Shown in pieces: positions 17,193 through 30,670 of a DNA stretch of 50,182 nucleotides. The stretch is from a virus (lineage: Duplodnaviria > Caudoviricetes): the IMG/VR virus record IMGVR_UViG_3300044615_001189, positions 1 through 50,182 of that record. One strand, written 5' to 3'. Each line of letters opens with the position of its first letter. Position 1 is the first letter of the stretch. The notes beneath the pieces are model-generated. The model ran no database searches and was not told the DNA's origin. It worked only from the letters and a program-made list of their open reading frames with translations. Both the position numbers and the translations under genes were made by a program.

Positions 17193-17383
17193 GGAGCTTC
17201 CCGGATGGCGTCGGCGGCCCGCTGAAGGGCGTGAAGGATCTCAGGCTTGCTGCCGGGCGAGAAGCGGCAGTCGATGATCGCCTGCTCCCGGAGCTGGTGA
17301 AGGACGCGGATGGCCCGTTCGCGTTCGTGCAGCACCCCGGCGCGCCATGCGAGGGAGTCGGGGATCTCGAGGACGTCGCTCAT
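17189..17383 (-). CDS. Hypothetical protein
   Basis: MSDVLEIPDS..., overlap-coupled on both sides. Confidence 0.6.
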   Translation of the reverse strand: MSDVLEIPDSLAWRAGVLHERERAIRVLHQLREQAIIDCRFSPGSKPEILHALQRAADAIREAP

Positions 17384-17679
17384 GCCTCGGGCTCCAGCTC
17401 GGGGGAGGCTGGGAAGGGGAAGGAGGAGACGAGCTCCTGAGCAGTGAGGCCTCGATCCTGGGCAGCGCGGACGATGCGGTTGGTGAGGACGCGGGCGTTC
17501 TTCACCGTGGCCTCGCAGACGAACCAAGACCAGTTGCGGAAGCGGATCTGCTGCTCCGCCCAGACCTCGGGCTTGAGGGCCCAGTTGAGGGCCTGCTCGT
17601 TCGATTGGCAGTGGCAGTGGTTGGCGTCGCGGAAGAGGCGACGCAGACGGACCATGGCGGTCTCGGGAGCGATGGTCAT
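17380..17679 (-). CDS. Hypothetical protein
   Basis: MTIAPETAMVRLRRLF..., follows the promoter at 17703-17753. Confidence 0.6.
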   Translation of the reverse strand: MTIAPETAMVRLRRLFRDANHCHCQSNEQALNWALKPEVWAEQQIRFRNWSWFVCEATVKNARVLTNRIVRAAQDRGLTAQELVSSFPFPASPELEPEA

Positions 17680-17702
17680 GACGGGATGCAGAGTGCCCAC
17701 CG

Positions 17703-17753
17703 ACGCTACGGGCTGGAGGCGGTCTAGGCCCGTGGGTTGTAACAGTGCTTCAC
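17703..17753 (-). promoter_or_regulatory. HLR1-like direct repeat plus -10 box
   Basis: GTGAAG-CACT-GTTACA (17753-17738), 29 nt, TAGCGT. Confidence 0.6.
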
Positions 17754-18100
17754 AGTCGCAGGATGGAGAGGGCATCGGGGATTGAGCGCGCGATGCCGGC
17801 CAGGCCGCCTGCCTGCTGCACCAGGTTGATGAAGGCCTGCTGCTGTTCGGTGGGGCGGCCGCGGTCCTTGACCTCCACGGCGGTGAAGACGGCCACGCGC
17901 TGGCCCACCATGTCGGGGGTGATGGTGATGGTGCGGAAGCCGATGAGATCGCTGCTGCCGGGGCAGAGGCCGTAGCGCACCAGCTGGCCCTGGGCATCGC
18001 GAAGGGCACCGACGTTGTTGCGCCAGAGGCGAGCGGGGCCCCTGCCGGCTTCGAGCTGGATCTTCGATTGGATGAGCCGCTCATCCGAACGCTCGGGCAT
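17750..18100 (-). CDS. VRR-NUC domain nuclease
   Basis: LWRNNVG, GSSDLIG, AVEVK..GRPTEQQQAF. Confidence 0.88.
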   Translation of the reverse strand: MPERSDERLIQSKIQLEAGRGPARLWRNNVGALRDAQGQLVRYGLCPGSSDLIGFRTITITPDMVGQRVAVFTAVEVKDRGRPTEQQQAFINLVQQAGGLAGIARSIPDALSILRL

Positions 18101-19478
18101 GGGGCTGACCTCTGGCTGCGAGCATGTGCGCGACCCATCCTGGCTTGTAGCCGCGCTCGCGGGCGATCGTTTCAAGCTCCTCGCGGGTGCGGGCCTTGGC
18201 GACCTCGCGGCGCTCGATGCGGCGGATCTCGGTGCCGGTGAGCTCCCGCAGGTCGCCATCGACCATCGTCAGCTCCCGCTTCGCGGTTTCGACCTCATGG
18301 CCGCACTCAGGGCATGGGTTGGCCGTGGAGGGGATGGCGGAGAAGCAGGTGGGGCAGATGCGGATCGGGAGCGCGGCGGACTTGCGGCCCTTGCCCTTGG
18401 GCCGGCCTTCGAGGGACCACTCGCGTGGATCAGTGGGGAGGCCGTGGCGGAGGGTGTTGCCCACGTGGTCGTTGACGATCGCGTGGGGCTTCCCGGGGCA
18501 TGGGCGGAGCACGCGGCCGACCTGCTGGAGGTGCAGGCCCAGGGAGTCGGTGGGCCGCAGCAAGATCGCGCCGGTGACCGATGGAATGTCGGTGCCCTCG
18601 CTGATGATGTCGCAGGAGGTGAGCACCTTCAGTTGCCCGGTGCCCAGGTCGTTGATGGTGCGGCGGCGGATGCCCCGGTCCATGGTGCCGTCGAGGCGAG
18701 CGGCGCTGATGCCCTGCTCGCGGAACGCCTCGGCCACGGCATCGGCGTGAGCGACGGAGCAGCAGAAGGCGATGGCGGTGCCGTTGTGGGTGTCCTCGAT
18801 GGTGCGGCGGTAGTGGGAGACGGCATCGCCCATGGCCTGGCCCTGGCGGAGGATGGTGTCGGAGTCGTGGCGGCCCTTCTTGGTGTCGAACCGCTTCACC
18901 GCCGACAGGTCGATGCCAGGCGGGGCGAACACCCTGGCGCGCACGAGGAAGCCCTCCTGGGTGCCCCATGCCGCGTCGGGGCCTTCGATGAGCACCTCGA
19001 ACTGATCGCCCAGGCCCCGCCCGTCGAGTCGCTCAGGAGTCGCGGTGACCCCCAGGACGTGGGCCCGGGGCATGGCGGCCAGCACCTTCGCCCAGGTGCC
19101 GGCGACGGCATGGTGGGCCTCGTCGACGATCAGCAGCTGGAAGAACTCGGGCGGGATGGTGTGGAGCCGCCGGGCGAGGGTCTGCACGGAGGCCACCTGC
19201 ACGCCCTGGCGGAGATCCTGGCGGTAGCCGGAGGCGATGACGCCGTGGTTGCAGCCGATCGCGTGGAGCGAGCGCGAGGACTGATCCACCAGCTCCTGGC
19301 GGTGGACCAGGATGCAGACCCGGTTGCCGCGGATCGCCGCCTGCTCGGCGATGTGGACGAACGTAAAGGTCTTGCCCATGCCGGTGGGCAGGACGAACAG
19401 GACGCGACGGTGGCCGGCCATGTAGGCACCGCGGATCTCGGCGACGGCTGAGGCCTGGAAGGGACGGAGAGAGACCAT
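18081..19478 (-). CDS. SF2 DEAD/DEAH-box helicase with C-terminal zinc ribbon
   Basis: LPTGMGKT, DEAHH, TATP, QQVGRVLR, CPTC..CPECG. Confidence 0.93.
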   Translation of the reverse strand: MVSLRPFQASAVAEIRGAYMAGHRRVLFVLPTGMGKTFTFVHIAEQAAIRGNRVCILVHRQELVDQSSRSLHAIGCNHGVIASGYRQDLRQGVQVASVQTLARRLHTIPPEFFQLLIVDEAHHAVAGTWAKVLAAMPRAHVLGVTATPERLDGRGLGDQFEVLIEGPDAAWGTQEGFLVRARVFAPPGIDLSAVKRFDTKKGRHDSDTILRQGQAMGDAVSHYRRTIEDTHNGTAIAFCCSVAHADAVAEAFREQGISAARLDGTMDRGIRRRTINDLGTGQLKVLTSCDIISEGTDIPSVTGAILLRPTDSLGLHLQQVGRVLRPCPGKPHAIVNDHVGNTLRHGLPTDPREWSLEGRPKGKGRKSAALPIRICPTCFSAIPSTANPCPECGHEVETAKRELTMVDGDLRELTGTEIRRIERREVAKARTREELETIARERGYKPGWVAHMLAARGQPHARAFG

Positions 19479-19555
19479 GGGTGAGAGCGTGTGCTGGGGG
19501 GTTGACTGTGACGGGAGAGTGCCCGATCCTCCCGCGAAATCAAGTGGTTACGCAA

Positions 19556-19610
19556 GTATGTAACGGTATGCGACGGGATGGAGCGGGATGCGCCGGGAAG
19601 TCTGTAGGGT
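19556..19610 (+). promoter_or_regulatory. Divergent early control region: 10-bp tandem repeats plus -10 box
   Basis: gtatgtaacg/gtatgcgacg/ggatggagcg/ggatgcgccg, then TAGGGT at 19605. Confidence 0.6.
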
Positions 19611-19635
19611 CGGAAGCGACCCCCGCAATTCACAG

Positions 19636-19857
19636 ATGAGGGATTGGATCGACTCCATCAGGGCGACCTGTTGGGCCTTCCGGGACATCCGGGAGGCAAG
19701 CCTGGCGGAGCTCCGCCAGCAACGGCAGCAGAAGCGGATCCGCGCGATGAGCGACGAGGAGCTGATGCTGTGCGCTCGCCAGTGGGGCGGGCATGTGGTG
19801 CGGCCTGAGCTGCGCCGCCGCGGCCTGCCGTTCCCTGGGGAGCGGACCGGTGCCTGA
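19636..19857 (+). CDS. Hypothetical protein
   Basis: MRDWIDSI...; first ORF of the rightward operon. Confidence 0.55.
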   Translation: MRDWIDSIRATCWAFRDIREASLAELRQQRQQKRIRAMSDEELMLCARQWGGHVVRPELRRRGLPFPGERTGA

Positions 19858-20659
19858 GCTGATCCACCACGAGGGCCTGAGCAACGAGGCCTACCACAGC
19901 CTGAAGGCTGTCAGCCCCAGCCAGATCAAGGTGCTGGGCCGCAGCCCGCTGCACTACTTCGACCAGTTTCTGGCGGAGGACCGGGAGAAGCGTGAGCCGA
20001 CCCCGGCGATGTTGATGGGCACCGCCCTGCACACCGCCGTCCTTGAGCCGGAGCTGTGGGGCAGCACCATCGCGGTGCCGCCGCATAGCTTCGACCGCCG
20101 CACCAAGGTGGGCAAGGAGCTGGCGGCCGAGTTCGAGCGCGAGAGCGCCGGGAAGATCGTGCTCTCCCCGGAGGACGCGGACCAGGTGCGCAGGATGGCG
20201 GACGCAGTGCGGAAGCATCCTGCTGCTGGCTTCCTGCTGGAGCTCCCCGGCCGGCGGGAAGCCAGCTACACCTGGAAGGATCCGGCCACGGGGCTGGAGT
20301 GCAAGACGCGGCCGGACTGGCACAGCGATGACCGGCGCATCGTGGTGGACGTGAAGACGTGCCGCGACGCCAGCCGGGTGGAGTTCGCGAAGTCGATCGC
20401 CAACCTCGACTACCACGTGCAGGCGGCCTGGAACCAGGGCGCGCTGCAGGCCGAGCAGTTCCTGACGATCGCGGTGGAGAACGTGCGGCCCTATGCCGTG
20501 GCGGTCTACCCCGCGAGCGGTGCGCTGATCGCTGCCGGCCAACGCCGGATCGAGGCGGCGATGGAGCTGCTGGCCGAGTGCTGGAAGTCGGGCCGCTGGC
20601 CTGGCTACGGCGACCTGGTGCAGGAGCCGATCGAGCTGCCCGGCTGGTGCCGGGACTGA
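19850..20659 (+). CDS. RecE-like PD-(D/E)XK exonuclease (DUF3799-like)
   Basis: SNEAYH, GTALHTAVLEP, CKTRPDW, VDVKT, YHVQAA. Confidence 0.88.
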   Translation: MPELIHHEGLSNEAYHSLKAVSPSQIKVLGRSPLHYFDQFLAEDREKREPTPAMLMGTALHTAVLEPELWGSTIAVPPHSFDRRTKVGKELAAEFERESAGKIVLSPEDADQVRRMADAVRKHPAAGFLLELPGRREASYTWKDPATGLECKTRPDWHSDDRRIVVDVKTCRDASRVEFAKSIANLDYHVQAAWNQGALQAEQFLTIAVENVRPYAVAVYPASGALIAAGQRRIEAAMELLAECWKSGRWPGYGDLVQEPIELPGWCRD

Positions 20660-20697
20660 CCATCAACCCTATTGAGAACCATTCGCATTAAGCCCCG

Positions 20698-21450
20698 ATG
20701 AGTGAATCAACCGCACTGACTCTCCAGCCGGTCCAGCCGCAGGGCCCCGGCGCTCTCGCCTTCCTCCACGACGGTGCTGCCTTCGAGCACCTGTGGCGTG
20801 TGGCCAAGGCGTTCAGCATGTCCGGCATGGTGCCGGGCCATTTCCAGGGCAAGCCTGAGAGCTGCATGGTCGCCCTGATGTATGCCCAGCAGCTGGGCGA
20901 GCATCCGATGGTGATGTTCCAGGAGGTGACCGTCATCAACGGCCGCCCGGGGACGAGCGCCCGCTTTGCCATCGCCCGCGCGAACAAGTCGGGCCTGCTC
21001 CAGGGCCCGATCACCTGGAAGTCAAAGGGCCAGGACGCCGCGCTGGAGGTGACAGCCTCGGCGGTGCTGCGCGAGACCGGCGAGGTGATCACCGCCACGG
21101 TGACCATGAAGGAGGCCGCGGCCGATGGCTGGACCAGGAACAGCAAGTACAAGTCGATCCCGGAGCAGATGCTGCGGTGGCGCGCCGCCACCAGGCTGAT
21201 CAACCTCTACATGCCGGAGGTGCTGTTCGGCCTGGGAGTGCGCGAAGAGGCTGAGGTGCGGCCGGTGACGGTGCGCGACCAGCCGGCCGAGGGCGGCAAC
21301 GTGGTGGCGGACCTGAACCGCCAGATCGCGGCCGCTGCTGCGGGCCAGACCGATGCAGTGTCGCAATCGGATTCTGGCGAAGAAGTGACGGTGGAGCCTG
21401 TGGCGGTGCTTCAGGATGAGAACCAATCTGCAGTCGAAGATCCCTTCTAA
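20698..21450 (+). CDS. RecT/Redbeta-like single-strand annealing protein
   Basis: GMVPGHFQGKP, VINGRP, YKSIPEQMLRWRA; adjacent to the exonuclease. Confidence 0.75.
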   Translation: MSESTALTLQPVQPQGPGALAFLHDGAAFEHLWRVAKAFSMSGMVPGHFQGKPESCMVALMYAQQLGEHPMVMFQEVTVINGRPGTSARFAIARANKSGLLQGPITWKSKGQDAALEVTASAVLRETGEVITATVTMKEAAADGWTRNSKYKSIPEQMLRWRAATRLINLYMPEVLFGLGVREEAEVRPVTVRDQPAEGGNVVADLNRQIAAAAAGQTDAVSQSDSGEEVTVEPVAVLQDENQSAVEDPF

Positions 21451-21461
21451 GAGGTGTGCCT

Positions 21462-21677
21462 ATGGGAGAGAAAGCGTTTCTAACGAGTAAGGAGCTGTCC
21501 GATCGATGGCGGCTCAGCGACCAGACGTTGGCCAACTGGCGCTATGCGGGCAAGGGCCCGCGGTTCATCCGGGTTGGCAGCCGGGTTCTTTACCCCGCCG
21601 AGGGGATCCACGCTTTCGAGAAGTCGAGCAATTTCGGCAACGCGGAAGATCAACAACAACCACAAGCAACCACGTGA
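21462..21677 (+). CDS. Excisionase-like HTH DNA-binding protein
   Basis: FLTSKELSDRWRLSDQTLANWRYAGKGPRFIRVGSRVLY. Confidence 0.85.
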   Translation: MGEKAFLTSKELSDRWRLSDQTLANWRYAGKGPRFIRVGSRVLYPAEGIHAFEKSSNFGNAEDQQQPQATT

Positions 21678-22138
21678 ACGACCCAATCGCAATTCTGCTC
21701 CGCGCGAGCCTGCATCAGTTCATCGGCCGACTGGGGAAGGATCCTGAGATCCGTTACCTGGAAAGCGGCAAATGCGTCGTCAACGTCAACATCGGCGTGA
21801 ACTGGTTGTCCGACAAGGACCAGACGGACTGGATCAAGCTGGAGGTGTGGGGCGAGGCCGGGCAAGCCTTCGCCGACGCTGCCCGGAAGGGCTACCTGGT
21901 GCAGGTGGCGGGGAGGGTGAAGACCGACCGCTGGACGGATCGGAGCACCGGCGAGGAGAAAATGCAGCTGTGCTGCAGGGTGGAGAGCTGGAAGGTGCTG
22001 GCGACGCCCCAGGGCGGCCAGGCGGCACCGGCAGCGGCCCCAGCGGCGGCCCCCGCGCCTGCGGCGGTGGCCCCGGCTCCCGCTCCGGCAGCGCCGCCGG
22101 TGTGGCAGACACCGGACCACGACGGGATCCCGTTCTGA
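21674..22138 (+). CDS. ssb: Single-stranded DNA-binding protein, cyanobacterial type
   Basis: GRLGKDPEIRYLESG, TDWIKLEVWG, DRWTDRSTGE, acidic tail DGIPF. Confidence 0.92.
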   Translation: MNDPIAILLRASLHQFIGRLGKDPEIRYLESGKCVVNVNIGVNWLSDKDQTDWIKLEVWGEAGQAFADAARKGYLVQVAGRVKTDRWTDRSTGEEKMQLCCRVESWKVLATPQGGQAAPAAAPAAAPAPAAVAPAPAPAAPPVWQTPDHDGIPF

Positions 22139-22158
22139 TCGAGGCCGGGTGATGGGAC

Positions 22159-22192
22159 AAGGGCCCGCTCCACTGGGGCGGGCCTTTCCTTT
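22159..22192 (+). terminator. Intrinsic terminator after ssb
   Basis: GGCCCGCTC-CACTG-GGGCGGGCC followed by TTTCCTTT. Confidence 0.75.
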
Positions 22193-22242
22193 GTGAAGAT
22201 GTGTAACAGCCGCTAGGCGCGGCCGGTGGCAGCGCGGATGAT
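22193..22242 (+). promoter_or_regulatory. HLR1-like direct repeat plus -10 box
   Basis: GTGAAG-ATGT-GTAACA, 28 nt, GATGAT. Confidence 0.6.
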
Positions 22243-22279
22243 GGCCTCACGGGGGACGACCCCCACCGCTCTCGCTCTC

Positions 22280-22510
22280 ATGGACATCCTCGACAGCACC
22301 TACTACCGCTCGCACGGCCGGAAGCCGCGCGGTCGCGGCTCCTGGGCCTTCTGCCCCTGGAGCAAGCAGAACGCTCTCGACTACCTGCAGCACACGATCT
22401 TCAGCCCCGGCGGCATGACGTTCACCGAGGCAAAGCGCTGGGCACGGCGGCACGCCAGCGACCCCAGCTCGCCGCTGGCTGGCGTCCGCACTGTCGCCGT
22501 GATGCCCTGA
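22280..22510 (+). CDS. Hypothetical protein
   Basis: MDILDSTYYRSHGRKPRGRGSWAF... Confidence 0.7.
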   Translation: MDILDSTYYRSHGRKPRGRGSWAFCPWSKQNALDYLQHTIFSPGGMTFTEAKRWARRHASDPSSPLAGVRTVAVMP

Positions 22511-22545
22511 GCGGCACCCCCTCCCCATCGCATCGCTTTCACCCC

Positions 22546-22938
22546 ATGACCCGTTTCATTGAGCTGCGCTTCCAGGTCCGCGACCACGGCGAAAAGCGCA
22601 TCAAGATCACCCCGGCCTGGGCCGGGAAGGGCATCGCCATCCACAAGCCGATCGCCTTCGACCCGGACACCCGCGAGCCGTACTTCCAGGAGGTCCAAGG
22701 CCTGTGGCGGCTCAGCCACATCAACTCCGGCCTGGCGCTGGGTGCCTGCATGGGCAGCCTGGATCGGGCCAAGAGCTTCGCCCGCGAGTGGGACCTGGAG
22801 TTCGCCGTGCCAGATCCCAAGGCCGTGATGGCTCCCAGCCGACTGAAGGAATGGGCCGCCGTGATGGAGGAGATGAAGACCGAGCCGCCGCGCAAGCCGC
22901 GCCAGCCGGCCATCCGCCGCGGCCGGGAGGTGGCCTGA
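22546..22938 (+). CDS. Hypothetical protein
   Basis: 130 aa ORF, TGATG-coupled to the methyltransferase. Confidence 0.65.
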   Translation: MTRFIELRFQVRDHGEKRIKITPAWAGKGIAIHKPIAFDPDTREPYFQEVQGLWRLSHINSGLALGACMGSLDRAKSFAREWDLEFAVPDPKAVMAPSRLKEWAAVMEEMKTEPPRKPRQPAIRRGREVA

Positions 22939-24356
22939 TGTTCAACCCCGACTTCTACCCCACCCCTGAGCTGGTGGCGGCCACGATGCTCGATCCCCTC
23001 GACCTTCGCGGCCGCACCGTGGTCGAGCCCTCGGCAGGCTCCGGGAACCTGGTCCGCGCGGCCCTGGAGCGCGGTGCCGAGGAAGTGCTGATGGTCGAGC
23101 CGGAGCCGAAGCTGCGGGCAATCCTGGCGGCAATCACCGGCGGCCGGCTGATCGGCAGCGACTGGCTGCAGGTCCAGGCGGAGCAGATCAGCCACGTGGA
23201 TCTGATCGTGATGAACCCGCCCTTCAGCGCGGACGAGCACCACATCCTGCACGCTTGGGCCATCGCCCCGGCCGGCTGCGAGATCGTGAGCCTCTGCAAC
23301 TGGTGCACGATCGAGGACAGCCGCTGGGGCTCCAGAGCCAGCCGGGAGCTCCGCACACTGATCGAGCAATACGGCAGCCGCCAGAACCTGGGCTCGGTGT
23401 TCGAGGACGCGGAGCGCACCACCCGGGTGGAGATCGGCCTGGTGCGGCTGACGAAGCCCGGCCAACGTGTAAGCGGCGCTGATGAGTTCGACGGGTTCTT
23501 CCTCGGGCCCGACGACATCGAGGCCCAGGGCGAGGGGATCATCCCTTACCGCCGGAGCCGCGACCTGGTGAACCGGTACGTCGAGGCCTGCCGCATCTAC
23601 GACCAGCAGCTGGAGGCCGGCGTGCGGCTGCAGGCCCAGGTGGGCGGCATCTACAAGGGCGAGCTCGGCCTGCAGATCACCATGGAGGGCTGCACCGCCA
23701 GCCGGAACCGCTTCCGGAAGGAGCTGCAGAAGAGCTTCTGGGAGTCGGTGATCGCCGAGATGCTGCCGCGCGAGATGGCCACCAGCCAGCTCCAGGGCGA
23801 CATCAACACGTTCGTGGAGCAGCAGACCAAGGTGCCGTTCACCGAGCGGAACCTGTTCCGCATGCTGCAGATCATCGCGGGCACGACGGATCAGCGGATC
23901 GACCGAGCGGTGGAGGCGGCGTTCGACGAGCTGACCCGCCACACCGCCGAGAACCGGTGGCAGGTTGAAGGCTGGAAGACGAACGACGCCTACCTGTTCA
24001 ACCAGAAGTTCATCGTGCCCTACCTGGCGGAGCCGGACTGGAGCGGCGGCACTGTGAGCCTGAAGCGGTGGAGCGGCAACTTCCCGCGGATCCGCGACCT
24101 GATCAAGGCGCTGGTCTACATCACCGGCCGGCCCTATGCCGAGGTGGAGGATCCCGCCTGCGGGTATGACCGGATCGAAGCCGGGGTCTGGTACGACTGG
24201 GGCTTCTTCGAGTTCAAGGTGTTCAAGAAGGGCACCGGCCACTTCCGGTTCAAGGATCCGGAGGACTGGGCTGCGCTGAACGCCCGGGTGGCGCGGATCA
24301 AGGGCCTGGTGCTGCCGGAGAAGCTCCGCCGCAAGGGCCGCCGTGCGCGAGTGTGA
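22938..24356 (+). CDS. Amino-DNA methyltransferase with DUF4942-like C-terminal domain
   Basis: DFYPTP, EPSAGSGN, MNPPF; GWKTNDAY...KVFKKGTGHFRF. Confidence 0.88.
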   Translation: MFNPDFYPTPELVAATMLDPLDLRGRTVVEPSAGSGNLVRAALERGAEEVLMVEPEPKLRAILAAITGGRLIGSDWLQVQAEQISHVDLIVMNPPFSADEHHILHAWAIAPAGCEIVSLCNWCTIEDSRWGSRASRELRTLIEQYGSRQNLGSVFEDAERTTRVEIGLVRLTKPGQRVSGADEFDGFFLGPDDIEAQGEGIIPYRRSRDLVNRYVEACRIYDQQLEAGVRLQAQVGGIYKGELGLQITMEGCTASRNRFRKELQKSFWESVIAEMLPREMATSQLQGDINTFVEQQTKVPFTERNLFRMLQIIAGTTDQRIDRAVEAAFDELTRHTAENRWQVEGWKTNDAYLFNQKFIVPYLAEPDWSGGTVSLKRWSGNFPRIRDLIKALVYITGRPYAEVEDPACGYDRIEAGVWYDWGFFEFKVFKKGTGHFRFKDPEDWAALNARVARIKGLVLPEKLRRKGRRARV

Positions 24357-24402
24357 ACAGTTGTTACAGAGCCGTGGCGAGCGGCTGTGGCGTCGTGATG
24401 AT
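24353..24402 (+). promoter_or_regulatory. HLR1-like direct repeat plus -10 box
   Basis: GTGAAC-AGTT-GTTACA, 28 nt, GATGAT. Confidence 0.6.
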
Positions 24403-24447
24403 GGGTCCATCGCCCCCGACGGGGCGGCACCTCTCGCCTCTCAACTC

Positions 24448-24645
24448 ATGACCACCACCTACATCACCAAGGCCCGCCGCCAAGACCTGATTGAGCAGTA
24501 CATGGACTGTTGGTTTGGCACCGAGAGCTACTCCACCGAAGATGCGGCCGAAAGCGAAGGCCAATGGATGCGCAGCCAGCTCGAAGCGATGAACAACAGC
24601 CAGCTCGTCGCTGAGTGCAAGGCATCCGGGTGGGGGATCGCCTGA
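24448..24645 (+). CDS. Hypothetical acidic protein
   Basis: MTTTYITK...; first gene after the 24353 promoter. Confidence 0.7.
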   Translation: MTTTYITKARRQDLIEQYMDCWFGTESYSTEDAAESEGQWMRSQLEAMNNSQLVAECKASGWGIA

Positions 24646-24650
24646 CCCCC

Positions 24651-24676
24651 ACGGCCCGCCGGGAGCCAATCCCGGC
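24651..24676 (+). ncRNA. Conserved intergenic RNA structure (predicted H-type pseudoknot), copy 1
   Basis: ACGGC-CC-GCCGGGA-GCC-AA-TCCCGGC, 5 nt after TGA. Confidence 0.6.
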
Positions 24677-24705
24677 ACCTCTCACCCTCTCACCTCTCAC
24701 CAGCC

Positions 24706-25002
24706 ATGTCCCGCTCCAGCATCACCCTCGTCGGCCGCGCCAGCCAGCTTGCGTTTCGCGAGTTCGAGTCCGGCACCACCCGCGCATCTTTCACCCTCAC
24801 AGTCAAAGGCCGCGGCGATCGGCCGCCCCTGGTGGTCGAGTGCGAGGGCTGGGGCACGAAGATCCGCGAGCAGTTCGAGCTGATGGACGAGGGCTGCCTC
24901 GTCGGCATCATCGGCTCCCTGACCAAGGGTGCGGTCGGTGCCATGCCGCTGGTGCGACTCGACCGCCTCGAGCACCTGGGCCAGCCCCTGGCGGCGGCCT
25001 GA
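24706..25002 (+). CDS. Second SSB-like OB-fold protein lacking an acidic tail
   Basis: ITLVGR...FESG...FTLTV...CEGWG...GCLVGIIGSL. Confidence 0.7.
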   Translation: MSRSSITLVGRASQLAFREFESGTTRASFTLTVKGRGDRPPLVVECEGWGTKIREQFELMDEGCLVGIIGSLTKGAVGAMPLVRLDRLEHLGQPLAAA

Positions 25003-25007
25003 CCGCC

Positions 25008-25039
25008 GCGGCCCGCCGGGAGCCGTTCCCAATCCCGGC
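25008..25039 (+). ncRNA. Conserved intergenic RNA structure (predicted H-type pseudoknot), copy 2
   Basis: GCGGC-CC-GCCGGGA-GCCGT-TCCCAA-TCCCGGC, 5 nt after TGA. Confidence 0.65.
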
Positions 25040-25065
25040 AGTCGTCAACTCTGCATCCATCATCA

Positions 25066-25332
25066 ATGGCACTCGAAAACCGCACCGTGATCCTGAACGG
25101 GGCTCAGTTCACGCTCGGGAAGAAATACCGAGACAGCGTTCTCGGCGTCGAAGGAACCGCAGTCGCATCGGCCACCTACCTCACCGGCTGCGATCAGATC
25201 CAGCTGGCTGCACGTGACGCCAACGGCATGCCCTACAGCCAGTGGTTCGACGTGACCCGGATCGAAGGGGTCGAGGTCGAAGAGCGGCCCGGCGGCCCTG
25301 GGCCCAACATCACCGCGCGCCACCCTGGCTGA
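25066..25332 (+). CDS. Hypothetical phage protein
   Basis: LGKKYRDSVLGVEG...YLTGCDQ...WFD...PGGP. Confidence 0.75.
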   Translation: MALENRTVILNGAQFTLGKKYRDSVLGVEGTAVASATYLTGCDQIQLAARDANGMPYSQWFDVTRIEGVEVEERPGGPGPNITARHPG

Positions 25333-25337
25333 TCTCT

Positions 25338-25367
25338 GCGGCCCGCCGGAGCCGCCCCCAATCCGGC
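25338..25367 (+). ncRNA. Conserved intergenic RNA structure (predicted H-type pseudoknot), copy 3
   Basis: GCGGC-CC-GCCGGA-GCCGC-CCCCAA-TCCGGC, 5 nt after TGA. Confidence 0.65.
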
Positions 25368-25390
25368 CGCCCCATCACCAACATCCCCTC

Positions 25391-25555
25391 ATGCGTTTCG
25401 CCCTCGTTTTCTTCTACCTGGCCTTCACCGTTGGAATCAGTGCCGGCTTCTTCCATGCCCTGTCGAGCACGCTGACCGACATGACCCGGCGCGACTGCCG
25501 CCTGGGTATGCCGGCTGCCTGCGAACAGCTCCAGCGCGACGGGGTGCAGCCGTGA
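25391..25555 (+). CDS. Small membrane protein (54 aa, absent from the ORF track)
   Basis: MRFALVFFYLAFTVGISAGFFHALSSTLTDMTRRDCRLGMPAACEQL...; hydrophobic N-terminus plus DCxxGxxxAC. Confidence 0.65.
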   Translation: MRFALVFFYLAFTVGISAGFFHALSSTLTDMTRRDCRLGMPAACEQLQRDGVQP

Positions 25556-25749
25556 GCTTTGCCCTTCGCCGCGGCCGGCAGTGGATCACCGCGCCTGATG
25601 GCGATGGTGATCCGATCCCGCCCACACTGGTGCCAGGAGACGACCAGGCCCTCGCCTGGGTTGCTTCCAACATCGACATCGCGCATGAGCGCCAGGCCTT
25701 GATCAAAATGCTCTGGGGCTGGACCACCGAAATCCGTGCACTCCCATGA
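25552..25749 (+). CDS. Hypothetical protein
   Basis: GTGA overlap coupling. Confidence 0.6.
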   Translation: MSFALRRGRQWITAPDGDGDPIPPTLVPGDDQALAWVASNIDIAHERQALIKMLWGWTTEIRALP

Positions 25750-25955
25750 GCATTGCCATCCCACCTTCCGCCTGGCGGTTGCAGCCCGGCCAGCAAGCGT
25801 TCGTGCGCGGCTGGCCCCAGGGCGAGACCGTGCTGATTCTCGCCCAGCTGGAGTTCATCGACTGGCCCCACTACATCGTGGCCGACAGCAACGGAGCCGA
25901 GTGGCGCATCAGCCAGCTGCAGCTCTCCAGCCGTCCGATCCCTGCGGACCGATGA
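25746..25955 (+). CDS. Hypothetical protein
   Basis: ATGA overlap coupling. Confidence 0.6.
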   Translation: MSIAIPPSAWRLQPGQQAFVRGWPQGETVLILAQLEFIDWPHYIVADSNGAEWRISQLQLSSRPIPADR

Positions 25956-26164
25956 ACTGCCCTCAATGCGACGGGCTCAGCCGCGTCATCACCAGCCGGC
26001 CAGTGTTGGACATCCACGGCGGCCGGCTGCGGCGGCGTGCTTGCACTCGATGCCCCGCTCGCTGGTACAGCCTGCAACCTGAGCAGCCTGCTGAGGTGGC
26101 GATCCCGGCGGATGCCGTGAGCTGGATGGCCAGCGACGTGATAATCCATCGCGACAAGCTGTAA
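25952..26164 (+). CDS. NrdR-like N-terminal zinc-ribbon protein
   Basis: MNCPQC...SRVITSR...RRRACTRC..RW. Confidence 0.7.
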   Translation: MNCPQCDGLSRVITSRPVLDIHGGRLRRRACTRCPARWYSLQPEQPAEVAIPADAVSWMASDVIIHRDKL

Positions 26165-26169
26165 GGACC

Positions 26170-26373
26170 ATGAGCCGGGATTGGAACACGCCGCAGCGGG
26201 AGCCGTGGAACGTCCTGATCCGCGAAGCCCTGTGCGGCGTGGACCGTCACAACCGCGAGCTGCTGCGCACTGGTGATCCGCGACACGCGATCATGGCGCA
26301 GCAGCTGCGCCAGTATGTGGGAGAGCTCAAGACCTGGATCCACCAGCAGGAGAACGATGAGCAGCGAGCCTGA
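26170..26373 (+). CDS. Hypothetical protein
   Basis: MSRDWNTPQREPWN...ELKTWI. Confidence 0.65.
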   Translation: MSRDWNTPQREPWNVLIREALCGVDRHNRELLRTGDPRHAIMAQQLRQYVGELKTWIHQQENDEQRA

Positions 26374-26530
26374 GGTGATCAACCGCTGGGAGATCGGCGA
26401 TGGCGTGATCGAGCAGCTACAGCGGGCAGATGGCCAGCTCTACTACCGCGCCTGCGCGAAGGGCTACTGCCGCTATGCCGAGGATCTGTGGATGGTGGAC
26501 CTGTACCTGAAGCACCTTCAGGCGCGCTGA
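26357..26530 (+). CDS. Hypothetical protein
   Basis: MSSEPEVI...YYRACAKGYCRYAEDLW. Confidence 0.6.
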   Translation: MSSEPEVINRWEIGDGVIEQLQRADGQLYYRACAKGYCRYAEDLWMVDLYLKHLQAR

Positions 26531-26772
26531 GCCAGGAGCTCCGCCGCCCAGGCCCTGTGCTCATCGGTGACGGGGCAGCCCTGGGCTTTCTCCTGCTCGG
26601 CGACCTGGCAGACGAGCTGATGGGAGACCTGGGCCTGGATGGCGGAGAAGCGGAGCAGGTTGACGGCGATGGTGCGGAGCTCGTCGAGGTTGGTGGACGC
26701 CTGGATGTAGCGCACCTGCTTCTCGACTTCGAACTGCTCGGAGAGGGGGAGGTTGAGATCCAGCCAGAACAT
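26518..26772 (-). CDS. NblA-like helix-loop-helix protein (candidate phycobilisome degradation adaptor)
   Basis: LPLSEQFEVEKQVRYIQ...LDELRTIAVNLLR resembles the NblA pattern LSLEQQF...helix-loop-helix. Confidence 0.5.
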   Translation of the reverse strand: MFWLDLNLPLSEQFEVEKQVRYIQASTNLDELRTIAVNLLRFSAIQAQVSHQLVCQVAEQEKAQGCPVTDEHRAWAAELLAQRA

Positions 26773-26796
26773 GGAGGGAGAGGCGTGGGTGCCTGA

Positions 26797-26865
26797 AGCG
26801 TAGAGCGGCGGTGCGTGAAGGATTGTTACAGGTGCTGCAGGATGGCGGGTGACGGTCCGTAGGGT
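26797..26865. promoter_or_regulatory. Divergent promoters sharing one HLR1-like box
   Basis: GTGAAG-GATT-GTTACA at 26815-26830; + strand TAGGGT at 26860; - strand TACGCT at 26802-26797. Confidence 0.6.
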
Positions 26866-26888
26866 GTGCAGGTCAACGGCACTCAACC

Positions 26889-27278
26889 ATGCCTGACCAC
26901 TTCGACGAACCCGCCGGCGAGGCCCGCAAGTCCGCCGAAAGCGCCAGCAAGCCTCGCCTCGATCTGCTGCCGCCGGCGGCGATGGAGGCCATCGCGGAGG
27001 TGCTGACGTTTGGGGCCAACAAGTACGGGGCGAACAACTGGTGCCGTGGTGCCCGCTGGGGCCGCTACTACGCGGCGCTGCTGCGGCACCTGTTCGCCTG
27101 GTGGCGCGGCGAGGACCGCGACCCGGAGACAGGCCTGAGCCACCTGGCCCACGCCGGCTGCTGCCTGGTGTTCCTGATGGAGTACCAGCGCAACAGCTGG
27201 GGATCGGACGATCGGTTCCGGGGCCCCGATGGCGAGCAGTCCCAGAAGGGCGACGGCGCGCCGACCGCTACACTCTGA
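26889..27278 (+). CDS. dATP/dGTP diphosphohydrolase-like (DUF5664) protein
   Basis: KPRLDLLP...FGANKYGANNW...LLRH...GEDRDPETGLSHLAHA. Confidence 0.85.
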   Translation: MPDHFDEPAGEARKSAESASKPRLDLLPPAAMEAIAEVLTFGANKYGANNWCRGARWGRYYAALLRHLFAWWRGEDRDPETGLSHLAHAGCCLVFLMEYQRNSWGSDDRFRGPDGEQSQKGDGAPTATL

Positions 27279-27296
27279 CCGAGAGCCGTGCACACT

Positions 27297-27327
27297 GCCC
27301 GGGGAGGTGAGAGCCCCCGGGCTTTTT
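27297..27327 (+). terminator. Intrinsic terminator
   Basis: GCCCGGGG...CCCCGGGC followed by TTTTT. Confidence 0.7.
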
Positions 27328-27338
27328 GCTGGGCGTGG

Positions 27339-27366
27339 TTGCGGCAACGGCAACGCACCTTAGAAT
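27339..27366 (+). promoter_or_regulatory. Sigma70-like promoter of the HNH gene
   Basis: TTGCGG-16 nt-TAGAAT. Confidence 0.5.
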
Positions 27367-27387
27367 CATGGCAGCCGTTAAAAGCGA

Positions 27388-27741
27388 GTGCCATCCAACA
27401 GTGCCGACTACCAGCGCGCTTATTACGAGCGCAACCGCGAGAAGGTAAAGCGGCAGGCGGCAGCAGCAAACAAGCGCAAGAGAGAGTCTCACCGCCAACG
27501 CATCCGGGAGTACCTGCTGGCGCATCCATGCGTCGACTGCGGCGAGGCAGATCCAGTCGTCCTGGAGTTCGACCACAGGGTGCCAGCCGACAAGAGTTTC
27601 TGCATCAGCTCAAAGGTGAGCGTCACATGGCGCTGGGAGTTGATCGAAGCTGAAATTGCCAAATGCGACGTGCGATGCGCCAACTGCCATCGGCGACGCA
27701 CGTTCGCAGAAAAACACTGGCTTCTGGGGAAGCGGGTCTGA
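27388..27741 (+). CDS. HNH endonuclease
   Basis: CVDCG..DPVVLEFDH...EIAKCDVRCANCHRRRT. Confidence 0.88.
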   Translation: MPSNSADYQRAYYERNREKVKRQAAAANKRKRESHRQRIREYLLAHPCVDCGEADPVVLEFDHRVPADKSFCISSKVSVTWRWELIEAEIAKCDVRCANCHRRRTFAEKHWLLGKRV

Positions 27742-27809
27742 ACCGTTGACCGCCTGTGGTCACCGCGTGGGAACGGCCGCCGTGCAGTAGGCTGCTCACG
27801 GAATGTTCG

Positions 27810-27841
27810 AGCCCCGTAAGCCATTGGCCTGCGGGGCTTTT
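27810..27841. terminator. Hairpin next to attP (replacement terminator 3' of the restored tRNA)
   Basis: AGCCCCGTAAGCC-ATT-GGCCTGCGGGGCT followed by a T run. Confidence 0.6.
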
Positions 27842-27844
27842 CCT

Positions 27845-27890
27845 TGGATGCGGGGGCAGGATTTGAACCTGCGACCTTCAGGTTATGAGC
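27845..27890 (-). mobile_element. attP core = 3' half of a tRNA-Met(CAT), probably the initiator tRNA
   Basis: Reverse complement GCTCATAACCTGAAGGTCGCAGGTTCAAATCCTGCCCCCGCATCCA (anticodon loop, T arm, CCA); no 5' half; about 125 bp upstream of the integrase. Confidence 0.9.
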
Positions 27891-28014
27891 ATGACGCTCG
27901 GGCCTACCGTGGGATCACTGCGCATCCCTGAGCCTTGATTCTCCTGGGACTGGACTACCTGCCGCTCCTCGGGTATCCCTGCCGATCCCGGCAATCTGTG
28001 GGAACGGTGTGGGA

Positions 28015-29172
28015 ATGAAGCTGACCAAGACCGCTGTCGAGCGCGCCCTGCCCCAGGCCCAGCGCTACCGCCTGAACGACACCCTGGTGCCTGGCCTCTG
28101 CCTCCTGGTGCTCCCCTCCGGCCAGCGCACCTACTACCTGCGGCACCGCGTCGACGGGCAGCAGCGGGAGCTGAAGCTGGGCACCCCGGCGGAGCTCTCC
28201 CCCGACCAGGCCCGCGAGCTGGCCCGTGCCGCCCTCGCGCGCGTGCGCGCCGGCGGGGATCCGGGGGCGGAGCGGCGGGCCGCCAGGGAAGCCCCGACGA
28301 TCGAGGCCCTCGCCGCCCGCCACCTCCAGGTGCATGCCAGCCGGAAGCGATCGGGCCGGAACGACGAGATCCTCTGGCGGCGGCACCTGCTGCCGGCCTT
28401 TGCCCGCGTGCGCGTCTCCGCCCTCACCCGCGAACTGGTGCGGGAGTGGCACGCCTGCCACCCGCAGCCGGCGACGGCGAACCGGGCCCTGGAGGTGCTC
28501 GGGGTGGCGATGGGCCTGGCCGAGGACTGGGGGTGGCGGCCGGCCGGAAGCAACCCGGCCCGGGGGGTGAAGGCGCATCCGGAACGCCAGCGCCGCCGGT
28601 ATGCCAGCCAGGAGGAGCTGGCCCGGCTGCGCGCGGCGATGCAGCGATGGGAGGAGGCGGGCCCGCTGGCGGTGCGGTGGAGGTTCATCCAGCTGGTGCG
28701 CCTGCTGCTGCTCACCGGGGCGCGGCTGCGGGAGGTGATGAACGCGCAGTGGTCGGAGATCGACTGGCAGCGTGGGGTGCTGCGGGTGCCGGTGGAGCGG
28801 GGGAAGACGGGGGCGGCGGAGGTGCGGCTGAGCGAGCGCGCGGTGGCGGTGCTGCGCGACCTCCTGGAGGCCCAGGGGGTCGCGGGCGGTGGAGCACCCT
28901 GGGTGATCCCCGGGGAGAGCGGGGAGAAGCCGCTGGTGGGCTACCGAAAGCTGTGGCTGGCGCTGCTCGAGGAGGCGGGTGTGGCCGATCTGCGGGTGCA
29001 TGACCTGCGCCACACCTTCGCGTCCTACAGCCTGAGCGGCGGGCAGACTCTCGGGACGGTGGGCCAGCTCCTGGGGCACCGGAGCACGCAGACCACCAGC
29101 CGGTATGCGCACCTGGTGGACGACGCGGCGCGGGCGGCGGTCGAGCGGGTGAGCGACGATCTGGGGATGTGA
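28015..29172 (+). CDS. int: Tyrosine integrase with N-terminal arm-binding domain
   Basis: TGARLREV, RVHDLRHTFAS, LLGHRSTQTTSRYAH. Confidence 0.95.
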   Translation: MKLTKTAVERALPQAQRYRLNDTLVPGLCLLVLPSGQRTYYLRHRVDGQQRELKLGTPAELSPDQARELARAALARVRAGGDPGAERRAAREAPTIEALAARHLQVHASRKRSGRNDEILWRRHLLPAFARVRVSALTRELVREWHACHPQPATANRALEVLGVAMGLAEDWGWRPAGSNPARGVKAHPERQRRRYASQEELARLRAAMQRWEEAGPLAVRWRFIQLVRLLLLTGARLREVMNAQWSEIDWQRGVLRVPVERGKTGAAEVRLSERAVAVLRDLLEAQGVAGGGAPWVIPGESGEKPLVGYRKLWLALLEEAGVADLRVHDLRHTFASYSLSGGQTLGTVGQLLGHRSTQTTSRYAHLVDDAARAAVERVSDDLGM

Positions 29173-29218
29173 AGAGTTGCTGCTGCCGCGCCGGCGGGGC
29201 CAGGTAAAGCCTTACCGT
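29169..29218 (+). promoter_or_regulatory. Degenerate HLR1-like repeat plus -10 box
   Basis: GTGAAG-AGTT-GCTGCT, 28 nt, TACCGT. Confidence 0.45.
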
Positions 29219-29239
29219 CACGGTGTTTGCTCTCAACCC

Positions 29240-29521
29240 ATGACCGATCGCGCCGCTGAGTTCCGACGCCAGAAGAACCGCGCCTCGATGCAGCGCACCC
29301 GCGCGCGTGCGGCCGGCCTGCTGCCGCCGCTGCCTGTCTGCCCCAGTTGCAAGGCCAGGTGTTTCACTGATCGCTGGTTGCCGCTCTGCTCCCTCTGCGC
29401 CAAGGTCAAGGGCAACGACGCCAGCCGCCAGGCGCGCGGCTCCGCCAGGCCGCTGCGCCTCGCCGCCGAGGAGATCCTGCTGCAGCTGCGCGCCGAGGCC
29501 CGCGAGGAGGCCGGCCGATGA
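29240..29521 (+). CDS. Basic zinc-finger-like protein
   Basis: CPSC...CSLC. Confidence 0.6.
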   Translation: MTDRAAEFRRQKNRASMQRTRARAAGLLPPLPVCPSCKARCFTDRWLPLCSLCAKVKGNDASRQARGSARPLRLAAEEILLQLRAEAREEAGR

Positions 29522-29790
29522 TCCCCTCCACCGCCGACCTGCTGGCACAGCGACACCGCGCCACCGATGGCGCGCTGATGGACTGGGCCGACCTCGCCGC
29601 CCTGGTCGAAGCCCCGGGGAAGATCCCCACCCGGCAGCTTCAGGCGCACTGGCACTGCGGCCGGGGCGGCGTGTGCCGCCGCCTCGCTCGCCTCGCGGCA
29701 TCAGGCCTGCTCGAGTACAGCGCCGGCCGGGGGTACTACGAGATCCACCGCCTGGGGCCTGTTACGAAATGCGACAGCCAGGCGGCCTGA
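29518..29790 (+). CDS. Winged-helix DNA-binding protein
   Basis: TRQLQAHWHCGRGGVCRRLARLAASGLLEY. Confidence 0.6.
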   Translation: MIPSTADLLAQRHRATDGALMDWADLAALVEAPGKIPTRQLQAHWHCGRGGVCRRLARLAASGLLEYSAGRGYYEIHRLGPVTKCDSQAA

Positions 29791-29810
29791 CGCTGGCCGG
29801 TGGATAGGTT
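29761..29810 (+). promoter_or_regulatory. HLR1-like direct repeat plus -10 box
   Basis: GTTACG-AAAT-GCGACA, 28 nt, TAGGTT. Confidence 0.55.
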
Positions 29811-29864
29811 GTTGGGGACGGCAGGCCGAGCGCGCCACCGTCCCACCTCTCATCATTCACCGCC

Positions 29865-30053
29865 ATGTCTCTCACCTGCATCACCGCTTGGGCCCTCGCC
29901 CTGCTGCTTCTGCCCATCCTGTTGCTGGCCTGGGCCACCGAGAGCCGCGAGCAACGCGCACGCCGCTGGCGTCGCGCCGGCATGACCCAGCAGGCCATCG
30001 CCGATCGCCTCGGCTGCTCACGCACCACGGTCCGCCGCATGCTGGCCGCCTAG
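29865..30053 (+). CDS. Small protein: N-terminal membrane anchor plus HTH
   Basis: ALALLLLPILLLAW followed by GMTQQAIADRLGCSRTTVRRML. Confidence 0.7.
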   Translation: MSLTCITAWALALLLLPILLLAWATESREQRARRWRRAGMTQQAIADRLGCSRTTVRRMLAA

Positions 30054-30493
30054 GGGGCCGGCCACAGCTCCCGAGGATCCTTGCCGGTCACCATCATCCG
30101 GGCCAATCGTTCCGCACGCTGGCCCACCTGCTTGGCCCACCTCGAGTCGAGCATCATGGTCGCCGCCTGCTGGTAGTCGCCCGCCTCGATCGTCGCGAGG
30201 GTGCGCTTGAAGTTCAGCAGGCCCACGACGCCCATGTTGAACGCCATGTCGACCAGCACGCGCTGGCGCACCTCGTTCAGCTTCGCCACCCACGGCAGCG
30301 CGCGGAGCACCTCCGTCTCCATCGCGCCGATGTCGTTCGACAGCAGCATGGCGGACTCGTCGCGGGTGATGCCACGGTCCTCCAGGTTGCGGCCGACGCC
30401 GATCGTCAGCTTGCCGGCGGTGCAGCGGTAGGGCTTGAGGCGCTCCCCCTCGTGGAGGCGGAGCTGCCTCACCATCGCCTGGCGGTCGACCAT
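30050..30493 (-). CDS. Lysozyme (GH24/T4-like) endolysin
   Basis: HEGERLKPYRCTAGKLTIGVGRNL, DMAFNMG, DSRWAKQVGQRA. Confidence 0.9.
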   Translation of the reverse strand: MVDRQAMVRQLRLHEGERLKPYRCTAGKLTIGVGRNLEDRGITRDESAMLLSNDIGAMETEVLRALPWVAKLNEVRQRVLVDMAFNMGVVGLLNFKRTLATIEAGDYQQAATMMLDSRWAKQVGQRAERLARMMVTGKDPRELWPAP

Positions 30494-30654
30494 CAGCGAC
30501 GGCCGGACCGGAAGGGGAAGGCCTGCTGGGCGGCCCTGAGGATCAGCTGCAGCACGCTGTTGCTCTTCAGGCTGCTCATGCCGATGATCTCGCTGGCGAC
30601 GAACAGCGCCAGGCCGATGTACTGGGTGTAGTGGGGATCCACGATCGTTTCCAT
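30493..30654 (-). CDS. Small holin-like membrane protein (53 aa, absent from the ORF track)
   Basis: METIVDPHYTQYIGLALFVASEIIGMSSLKSNSVLQLIL...; TGATG-coupled to the lysozyme. Confidence 0.65.
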   Translation of the reverse strand: METIVDPHYTQYIGLALFVASEIIGMSSLKSNSVLQLILRAAQQAFPFRSGRR

Positions 30655-30670
30655 GATGATCGCCTCCAGG

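Follow-up and report, generated by a model that had tools for sequence, protein, structure and literature searches.

The subject of this analysis is a set of seven promoter-like elements (P1–P7) in a window of 50,182 bases, which is the entire IMG/VR virus record IMGVR_UViG_3300044615_001189 (Duplodnaviria; Caudoviricetes) and is rated complete by CheckV. Each element consists of a 16-nt box, a spacer of 28 or 29 nt and a −10-like hexamer; by its sequence and predicted position it belongs with the activating sites of HLR1, the direct repeat bound by the cyanobacterial response regulator RpaB, and the replication, recombination and regulator genes of the phage are probably switched by this light/redox regulator of the host.

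The promoters in the replication and recombination block

The replication/recombination block was located at about 14.9–30 kb. An earlier note, made from the letters of the window, had listed seven boxes with their spacers and −10 hexamers; the boxes were confirmed letter for letter at the coordinates it gave, the spacers of 28–29 nt and the hexamers were all present at their positions, and the TGA of the upstream gene was indeed found inside three boxes (open reading frames ending at 17750 on the minus strand, 24356 and 29172). Features of the promoters and their transcription units are as follows (scores: family matrix, see below; 18-mers: strand opposite to transcription, mismatches to the HLR1 consensus out of 16 positions):

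P1 box, 17738–17753 (−), score 26.4, TGA stop of the VRR-NUC gene inside the box.
P1 18-mer, 17739–17756 (plus-strand reading), GTAACAGTGCTTCACAGT, 4/16 mismatches.
P1 −10, 17703–17708 (−), TAGCGT, spacer 29.
P1 unit (−): 99-aa gene 17380–17679 (ATG at 17679), then the primase-polymerase/VapE helicase gene of the replication block, 14952–17192.
P2 box, 19560–19575 (+), score 22.1, in the divergent region between the helicase and recombination operons.
P2 18-mer, 19557–19574 (minus-strand reading), GTCGCATACCGTTACATA, 2/16 mismatches.
P2 −10, 19605–19610 (+), TAGGGT, spacer 29.
P2 unit (+): 73-aa open reading frame 19636–19857, exonuclease VIII-like nuclease 19793–20659, RecT 20698–21450, SSB 21506–22138.
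P3 box, 22193–22208 (+), score 24.6.
P3 18-mer, within 22190–22208 (minus-strand reading), GTTACACATCTTCACAAA, 2/16 mismatches.
P3 −10, 22237–22242 (+), GATGAT, spacer 28.
P3 unit (+): 76-aa open reading frame 22280–22510, open reading frame 22546–22938, DUF4942 DNA methyltransferase ending at 24356.
P4 box, 24353–24368 (+), score 28.7, TGA stop of the methyltransferase gene inside the box.
P4 18-mer, within 24350–24368 (minus-strand reading), GTAACAACTGTTCACACT, 4/16 mismatches.
P4 −10, 24397–24402 (+), GATGAT, spacer 28.
P4 unit (+): small open reading frames 24448–24645, 24706–25002, 25066–25332, 25391–25555, 25746–25955 and 26170–26373.
P5 box, 26815–26830 (+), score 28.1.
P5 18-mer, within 26812–26830 (minus-strand reading), GTAACAATCCTTCACGCA, 4/16 mismatches.
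P5 −10, 26860–26865 (+), TAGGGT, spacer 29.
P5 unit (+): protein with a dATP/dGTP diphosphohydrolase N-terminal domain 26889–27278, HNH endonuclease 27388–27741.
P6 box, the weakest, 29169–29184 (+), score 15.4, TGA stop of the integrase gene inside the box.
P6 18-mer, within 29166–29184 (minus-strand reading), GCAGCAACTCTTCACATC, 6/16 mismatches.
P6 −10, 29213–29218 (+), TACCGT, spacer 28.
P6 unit (+): 93-aa open reading frame 29240–29521, weakly MarR-like protein 29518–29790.
P7 box, 29761–29776 (+), score 17.1.
P7 18-mer, within 29758–29776 (minus-strand reading), GTCGCATTTCGTAACAGG, 5/16 mismatches.
P7 −10, 29805–29810 (+), TAGGTT, spacer 28.
P7 unit (+): 62-aa helix-turn-helix protein 29865–30053.
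17750–19478 (−), VRR-NUC nuclease and superfamily II helicase of the replication block.
28009–29172 (+), tyrosine integrase, adjoining two small DNA-binding proteins.

Occurrence above chance was examined with several descriptions of the box. The pattern GTGAAS-NNNT-GTWACA gave four perfect matches in the window and one with two mismatches; shuffled sequences gave 0.72 matches at ≤2 mismatches, and five matches were reached in none of 100 shuffles. P2 and P7 form a second subtype, the pattern of which is not significant by itself (two matches; 11 of 100 shuffles reach two). The family matrix was built from 67 non-redundant sites of related phages having a −10 hexamer at 28–29 nt, the window being excluded; the boxes were taken from 68 related IMG/VR loci gathered through the methyltransferase. 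On scanning the 50-kb genome with it, the seven sites were the top seven (scores 15.4–28.7), the eighth hit (8.0) was P1 read on the other strand, and a score of 14 was reached in none of 20 Markov shuffles; since the matrix gives these seven on top and then drops to 8.0, seven sites are counted and no more. A candidate eighth site at 31326–31341 (−), upstream of a 2OG-Fe(II) oxygenase gene and with two mismatches, was dropped because its matrix score was 0.5 and no −10 hexamer stood at 28–29 nt. With the literature HLR1 consensus alone, eight 18-mers with ≤4 mismatches were found (30 shuffles: mean 1.7, maximum 5); five of these eight best were P1–P5, all on the strand opposite to the downstream gene, and at ≤2 mismatches P2 and P3 were the only ones genome-wide, a level that no shuffle attained. 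No sigma70-type −35/−10 pair (TTGACA-like hexamer 16–18 nt upstream of the −10) was present in 17000–31500, the shuffles averaging 0.7.

The boxes of other known regulators were compared on geometry. The NtcA consensus is GTA-N8-TAC, centred near −41.5 and about 22 nt upstream of the −10; NtcA was rejected, as the boxes have the form GTG-N9-TAC or GT-N11-AC, which exceeds it by one base, are direct repeats and lie 28–29 nt from the −10. The CRP-type consensus is TGTGA-N6-TCACA; CRP was likewise rejected, TGTGA being followed here by 7 nt and TWACA instead of an inverted repeat with a 6-nt gap, and missing at P2 and P7. The Pho box has 8-nt repeats with an 11-bp period, and PhoB was set aside on the 10-bp period at 7 of 7 sites and in the 67-site matrix. 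The cyanobacterial LexA box was ruled out on geometry by comparison with its known consensus.

The orientation of the box relative to the downstream gene is identical at all seven sites, and several local features accompany them. A 10-bp tandem array of 3.6 copies (19563–19598, unit ACGGGATGCG) extends from the P2 box over most of the spacer behind it, and related phages have the same 10-bp pattern (GTAT/GGAT/GGAA) in the matching promoter; it may resemble tandem low-affinity sites of an OmpR-type regulator, or an operator array. A hairpin with a 12-pair stem and a U-tract (22154–22192; −27.4 kcal/mol, z only −1.45, 22 of 200 shuffles folding equally well) ends exactly at the start of the P3 box; it is likely the terminator of the P2 unit and would form a terminator–promoter cassette with P3. 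The leftward helicase/VRR-NUC operon has, in its 19479–19559 region, a conserved TTGATTTCGC element and a GAGGAT hexamer; neither a box by the matrix nor a sigma70-type promoter was found for it. The P2 box, read on the other strand, stands about 27 nt from GAGGAT, and a single box might serve both directions. No Shine–Dalgarno sequence was found 15–25 nt upstream of the starts at 17679 (−), 19636, 22280, 24448, 26889, 29240 and 29865; the leaders of these seven start codons are pyrimidine-rich (CTCTC, CTCAAC) and nearly G-free, like the host psaD leader.

Fit to HLR1: sequence, strand and position

The HLR1 consensus was used in the form (G/T)TTACA(T/A)(T/A)-NN-(G/T)TTACA(T/A)(T/A), as given in 10.1101/2023.12.07.570523. 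The earlier note had read the repeat along the direction of transcription (GTGAAG / GTTACA); this reading, in which the two halves are hardly alike and 5–9 mismatches result, was replaced by the reverse one. On the strand opposite to transcription the seven sites have 2, 2, 4, 4, 4, 5 and 6 mismatches of 16, and two (G/T)TnACA copies, ten bases apart, were recognized at every site; the reverse halves are GTWACA...TTCACA at P1 and P3–P5, GTCGCA...GTWACA at P2 and P7, and GCAGCA...TTCACA at P6. The likeness to HLR1 claimed in the note stands for P1–P5 (2–4 mismatches of 16) and is weak at P6 and P7. The half-sites of the phage are GTWACA, TTCACA or GTCGCA and not (G/T)TTACA, and the A/T flanks are mostly lost in this DNA of 67% GC.

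Positions were calculated for a transcription start 7 nt after the −10 hexamer. The 18-mer would then span −59 to −42 (28-nt spacer) or −60 to −43 (29-nt spacer), with its centre at −50.5 or −51.5. According to Riediger et al. 2019 (PMC6525291), activating HLR1 sites have their centres between −66 and −45 with a peak near −51 and serve activation by RpaB in low light, and a second cluster overlaps the start site and is repressive; its Table S3 gives for Synechocystis psaA (alternative transcription start site 2) an HLR1 at −59 to −42 on strand '−', marked 'act', GTAACAATAATTAAAAAT, and lists 'act' sites also at psaD, psaF/J, psaL/I, cpcB and apcE. In the cas10 study (10.1101/2023.12.07.570523) electrophoretic mobility shift and reporter assays show that the cas10 promoter owes its dependence on RpaB and low light to an HLR1 at −70 to −53. 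Photosystem I (PSI) and phycobilisome genes are the RpaB-activated classes in the literature. With a predicted centre inside the activating range and the place and strand of the Synechocystis psaA 'act' HLR1, the phage boxes would lie in the activating place and on a documented strand; the claim of the note that they stand where RpaB activates, upstream of the −35, would hold in this respect, given the assumed start.

The boxes share with the activating HLR1 sites of the Hik33/NblS-RpaB system, known from PSI genes and the type III-Dv cas10 gene of Synechocystis 6803, the imperfect direct repeats with a 10-bp period and a centre about 51 nt upstream of the predicted start without a usable −35; among the known sites both strands occur (the psaA site at alternative start 2 being listed on the '−' strand). 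Unlike the Synechocystis sites they are phage-borne and stand before genes of replication, recombination, DNA modification and regulation, and their binding and light response are predicted from sequence.

Related phages, the likely host and the remaining genes

The spacing was counted for 149 non-redundant degenerate boxes in the 68 related loci. TANNNT followed the box at 28 nt in 11 cases and at 29 nt in 35, with a second peak at 38–39 nt (18 boxes), one helical turn further; GATRAT followed at 28 nt in 14 and at 29 nt in 10, and the remaining offsets from 10 to 49 had at most two boxes each. Together the relatives give the consensus TGT(G/A)A(C/A)-(G)(G)(A)T-TGT(T/G/A)AC(A/G), with A/T-rich positions before it. 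In the high-GC relatives a −10 hexamer at 28–29 nt was found after 74 of 143 boxes, in distant AT-rich carriers of the methyltransferase after 8 of 101 and 6 of 42; the density of boxes with a −10 is not discriminating (0.91 per 10 kb in relatives, 0.56–0.59 in AT-rich distant genomes).

No close phage was found in GenBank by nucleotide search, and the phage search with the methyltransferase gave distant matches only (≤43% identity). The nearest cultured relative by primase is S-LBS1 (MG271909.1), a freshwater picocyanobacterial phage from Lake Bourget, for which a primase-polymerase, helicases, a VRR-NUC protein, an annealing protein and SSB are likewise annotated. Unlike the phage of the window, S-LBS1 (34.6 kb, 60% GC) has no boxes and carries its own gene for a cyanobacterial RpoD-like sigma factor; related phages may thus solve early transcription in two different ways.

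The pattern together with its −10 matched 72 IMG/VR stretches, among them many cassette-type relatives of 50–58% GC and several large contigs of 34% GC. In contigs of 50–59% GC (L188–L190, L194, L200, L203, L207, L209, L211, L212 and L214; also L227, L237, L240, L241, L248 and L249) the box was seen in a cassette with a hairpin in the spacer, −10 TATTGT (TATTCT in L241) and mostly a conserved TTCAAC/TTCACC downstream; one of these contigs has three copies of the cassette within 1.3 kb. Viral contigs of 34% GC (31% in L205) and up to 215 kb have TGTGAAG-N3-TGTAACA with a −10 at the same spacing; these contigs were L180, L185, L193, L198, L205, L223, L224, L231 and L242. A psbA-type gene was found in none of four large pattern-carrying records of 34% GC, three of them from this list.

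That the host is a cyanobacterium, as the earlier note had supposed, is very probable: two metagenome-assembled genomes (MAGs) of Cyanobacteriota have, on small contigs, homologues of the methyltransferase with 74% and 80% identity, and the primase shares 64% identity, over 98% of its length, with the enzyme of Synechococcus phage S-LBS1. The phage presumably infects freshwater picocyanobacteria, and the genus of one of the MAGs is taken as the putative host genus on the same two grounds. The fragment at 27849–27890 (−), directly upstream of the integrase gene, was interpreted as the 3' half of a tRNA gene (anticodon CAT) and is likely the attP core; no complete tRNA gene was found in the window by ARAGORN. 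With 27826–27905 as the query, tRNA genes of the host genus matched at 80–85% identity in 12 of 13 genomes, and in the family the best match was 93% over 46 nt, 7 of 201 genomes reaching E ≤1e-10.

Five genomes of the host genus (G003, G007, G009, G011 and G013) were searched over their whole length with TGAAS-N3-TGTWAC, 29–30 nt, TANNNT (≤1 mismatch), a pattern derived from the best boxes of the window. Ten matches were obtained, exactly two per genome (reversed control: two in total), and in all five genomes these were the psaA promoter (no mismatch; ATTGAACCTTTGTAACT, 29 nt, TATACT) and the promoter before an ApcA-like open reading frame (GTGAAGAACTGTTACC, 29 nt, CAGAAT). The 161-aa frame behind the latter was read as allophycocyanin alpha from its N-terminal sequence alone. 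At both promoters the box and the −10 are conserved and the spacer is variable. The psaD promoter has TGTTGACGGGTGTGAAG, 39 nt and TAGCTT in 12 of 12 genomes, and in 5 of 5 psaF has an opposite-strand box spaced by 39 nt; when 154 kb of host loci were scanned with the phage-trained matrix, nearly all hits ≥9 were the apcA, psaD and psaF boxes. The same element was thus found at PSI and phycobilisome genes of the likely host. RpaB is encoded there also: a G009 protein scored 397.6 bits on the RpaB equivalog NF045944 (cut-off 330).

The phage promoters resemble those of host psaA and apcA in the TGAAS-N3-TGTWAC box, its strand, the 29-nt spacer and the TAnnnT-type −10; the apcA box GTGAAGAACTGTTACC and the P1 box GTGAAGCACTGTTACA differ at two positions. 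Unlike the phage sites, the host boxes are single copies before photosynthesis genes with long leaders, and the apcA −10 is CAGAAT. Their function as RpaB sites is inferred by analogy with other species.

The best matches to the HLR1 consensus in MAGs G001 and G002 (L090, L092, L094 and L098) were seen upstream of multi-copy genes with a DUF3854 domain and not before photosynthesis genes; L090, L094, L098 and L093 (no gene call) have common conserved flanks, which suggests that RpaB-type sites are borne at the DUF3854 loci by a further mobile element. The consensus matches of the MAGs also included one hli and one phycobilisome-linker promoter.

Outside the replication block (GC content of the window: 65–73% in 2-kb windows), lambda-type terminase and portal, capsid and cement genes were recognized, and the tail is of the contractile P2-like type (sheath, tube, gpU, baseplate proteins V, W and J). 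The minus strand codes at 9839–11631 for a ParB_N protein and, behind it, a PAPS-reductase/DUF3440 protein, and at 12199–12927 for a second ParB_N protein, all situated between the terminase genes and the replication block; the ParB_N and PAPS-reductase/DUF3440 pair is presumably IbrB/IbrA-like. The first gene after P5 (26889–27278) encodes a 129-aa protein, the dATP/dGTP diphosphohydrolase N-terminal domain of which matches PF18909 (E 7.7e-36); no PurZ-like gene was present among the open reading frames scanned.

Host regulator, rival binders and the early programme

The seven sites are rather probably activator-dependent promoters without a −35 that copy the RpaB-activated low-light class of host PSI and phycobilisome promoters. 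Each was observed to have an HLR1-type direct repeat with a 10-bp period, best on the opposite strand, then 28–29 nt and a −10 of the form nAnnnT; with a start 7 nt after the −10 the repeat would lie at −59/−60 to −42/−43. A dimer of the OmpR-type host RpaB would bind the repeat while active, in low or moderate light, and would recruit the host RNA polymerase, as at psaA; in high light or under redox stress RpaB would leave the sites and the promoters would fall silent. No Trans_reg_C (OmpR-type) domain was found in six frames of the phage at E up to 1. For the RpaB wiring proposed in the earlier note speak the HLR1-like boxes, their predicted activating place and the psaA/apcA layout; its forward-strand reading did not survive and P6 and P7 fit it poorly.

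The following points weigh against this reading. P6 and P7 are marginal (6 and 5 mismatches) and owe their inclusion mainly to the family matrix, the spacing and the −10; by the matrix counts the third position of each half-site is seldom the consensus T; and the placement at −59 to −42 depends on the assumed start. In the host genus the psaD and psaF boxes stand one helical turn further upstream (39 nt, not 28–29), and a psaL box was found in none of the five genomes. The strict phage consensus (TGTRAM-N4-TGTNAC, 29–30 nt, TANNNT) gave three matches in these five genomes vs two in the control, the 16-mer gave four vs three at ≤1 mismatch in two MAGs with none perfect, and the literature consensus at ≤3 mismatches gave 20 vs 25 in MAG G001, though it was enriched in G002 (19 vs 5). 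As to the host, a third methyltransferase homologue (70%) lies on a contig labelled as an Anaerolineae MAG, and an exact partner of the tRNA-like attP fragment was found in none of 13 genus or 201 family genomes. Among the high-GC related loci 42 of 62 carry one or more such promoters and the other 20 lack them, and S-LBS1 gave no matrix hit ≥7 and no degenerate box with a −10 at 28–29 nt. Three further G009 proteins pass NF045944 (361.6, 349.3 and 335.5 bits), and a paralogue of RpaB could be the binder. Finally, if the host alone can fire these promoters, it is hard to see how the replication genes stay silent in a lysogen, unless a repressor of the phage competes at the boxes.

Binding of the boxes by a regulator of the phage itself, serving in middle-gene activation or as the lysogenic repressor, with the likeness to HLR1 due to coincidence or mimicry, is considered unlikely. 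Such a regulator would have candidates in the products of P6 and P7, namely the 93-aa protein, the MarR-like protein (29518–29790) and the 62-aa helix-turn-helix protein (29865–30053), small DNA-binding proteins next to the integrase; seven scattered promoters with only the box and the −10 in common are the usual layout of a phage cascade, and the lack of enrichment of the strict phage consensus in host genomes and the patchy use of boxes among relatives point the same way. This explanation keeps weight because a lysogen must silence P1–P5, the common element of which is the box. The host promoters tell against it: the same box, spacing and −10 stand at psaA and apcA in 5 of 5 host-genus genomes, with similar ones at psaD and psaF, all of these being essential host genes that need no phage protein for their expression. 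Activators of the OmpR family, and not small dimeric helix-turn-helix repressors, typically use direct repeats of 10-bp period centred near −51; the boxes have this predicted geometry and the phage is without an OmpR-type domain. A host factor is held to be likelier than a phage factor in view of the very probably cyanobacterial host, the HLR1-like boxes in their predicted activating place and the same architecture at psaA and apcA in the putative host genus. Both ideas would be reconciled if a repressor of the phage competed with RpaB for the boxes.

Of equally small probability is another OmpR-family regulator of the host, e.g., an RpaB paralogue such as the clock-output RpaA, the signal of which would then govern the phage genes. 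In G009 there are 15 Trans_reg_C matches, 4 of 11 proteins tested exceed the RpaB cut-off, and the half-sites of the phage deviate from HLR1 at the third position; the host promoters sharing the architecture fall, on the other side, in the gene classes known as RpaB-activated, and the predicted position and the strand equal those of the Synechocystis psaA HLR1 in Table S3. It is highly improbable that the boxes are UP-element-like or curved DNA or recombination joints of modules, with incidental −10-like hexamers, as might be thought from the three that overlap stop codons at gene junctions and from the hairpin adjoining P3, given the very sharp spacing to the −10 across 149 boxes in relatives, the same orientation to the downstream gene at 7 of 7 sites and an architecture conserved at host photosynthesis promoters while the spacers diverge.

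That HLR1 occurs in cyanophage genomes is said in one sentence of PMC6525291 citing Riediger et al. 2018, the only mention found in the literature searched. Here, too, a host RpaB-type site would stand on phage DNA. The cyanophage sites reportedly lie at auxiliary genes of the hli/psbA type, near or over the core promoter, and are said to be of the repressing class; the sites of the window differ in their activating position and in belonging to the programme of the replication region. Host PhoB controls cyanophage pstS and phoA through Pho boxes, which have an 11-bp period and a different sequence and serve auxiliary metabolic genes; in both cases an OmpR-family response regulator of the host would read direct repeats on phage DNA, here with a 10-bp period and for the core early programme. 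No description of RpaB or HLR1 control of phage replication-region promoters was found in the literature searched.

Cyanophage infection depends on light, and to our knowledge it is an open question how a phage reads light. With RpaB as the binder, the whole early programme appears wired to the main light/redox transcription factor of the host, via copies of its strongest low-light promoters: the primase-helicase, Exo/RecT/SSB, methyltransferase and accessory genes and the two regulator operons adjoining the integrase would be tied to the photosynthetic state. It is put forward more tentatively that the phage has no stand-alone early promoters at all, the replication, recombination, modification and lysogeny-regulator genes being all placed on copied RpaB-activated promoters. 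If true, the photosynthetic redox signal of the host would directly gate the development of the phage, perhaps also its decision for lysogeny or lysis, and the dependence of infection on light, long observed in cyanophages, would have a molecular route.

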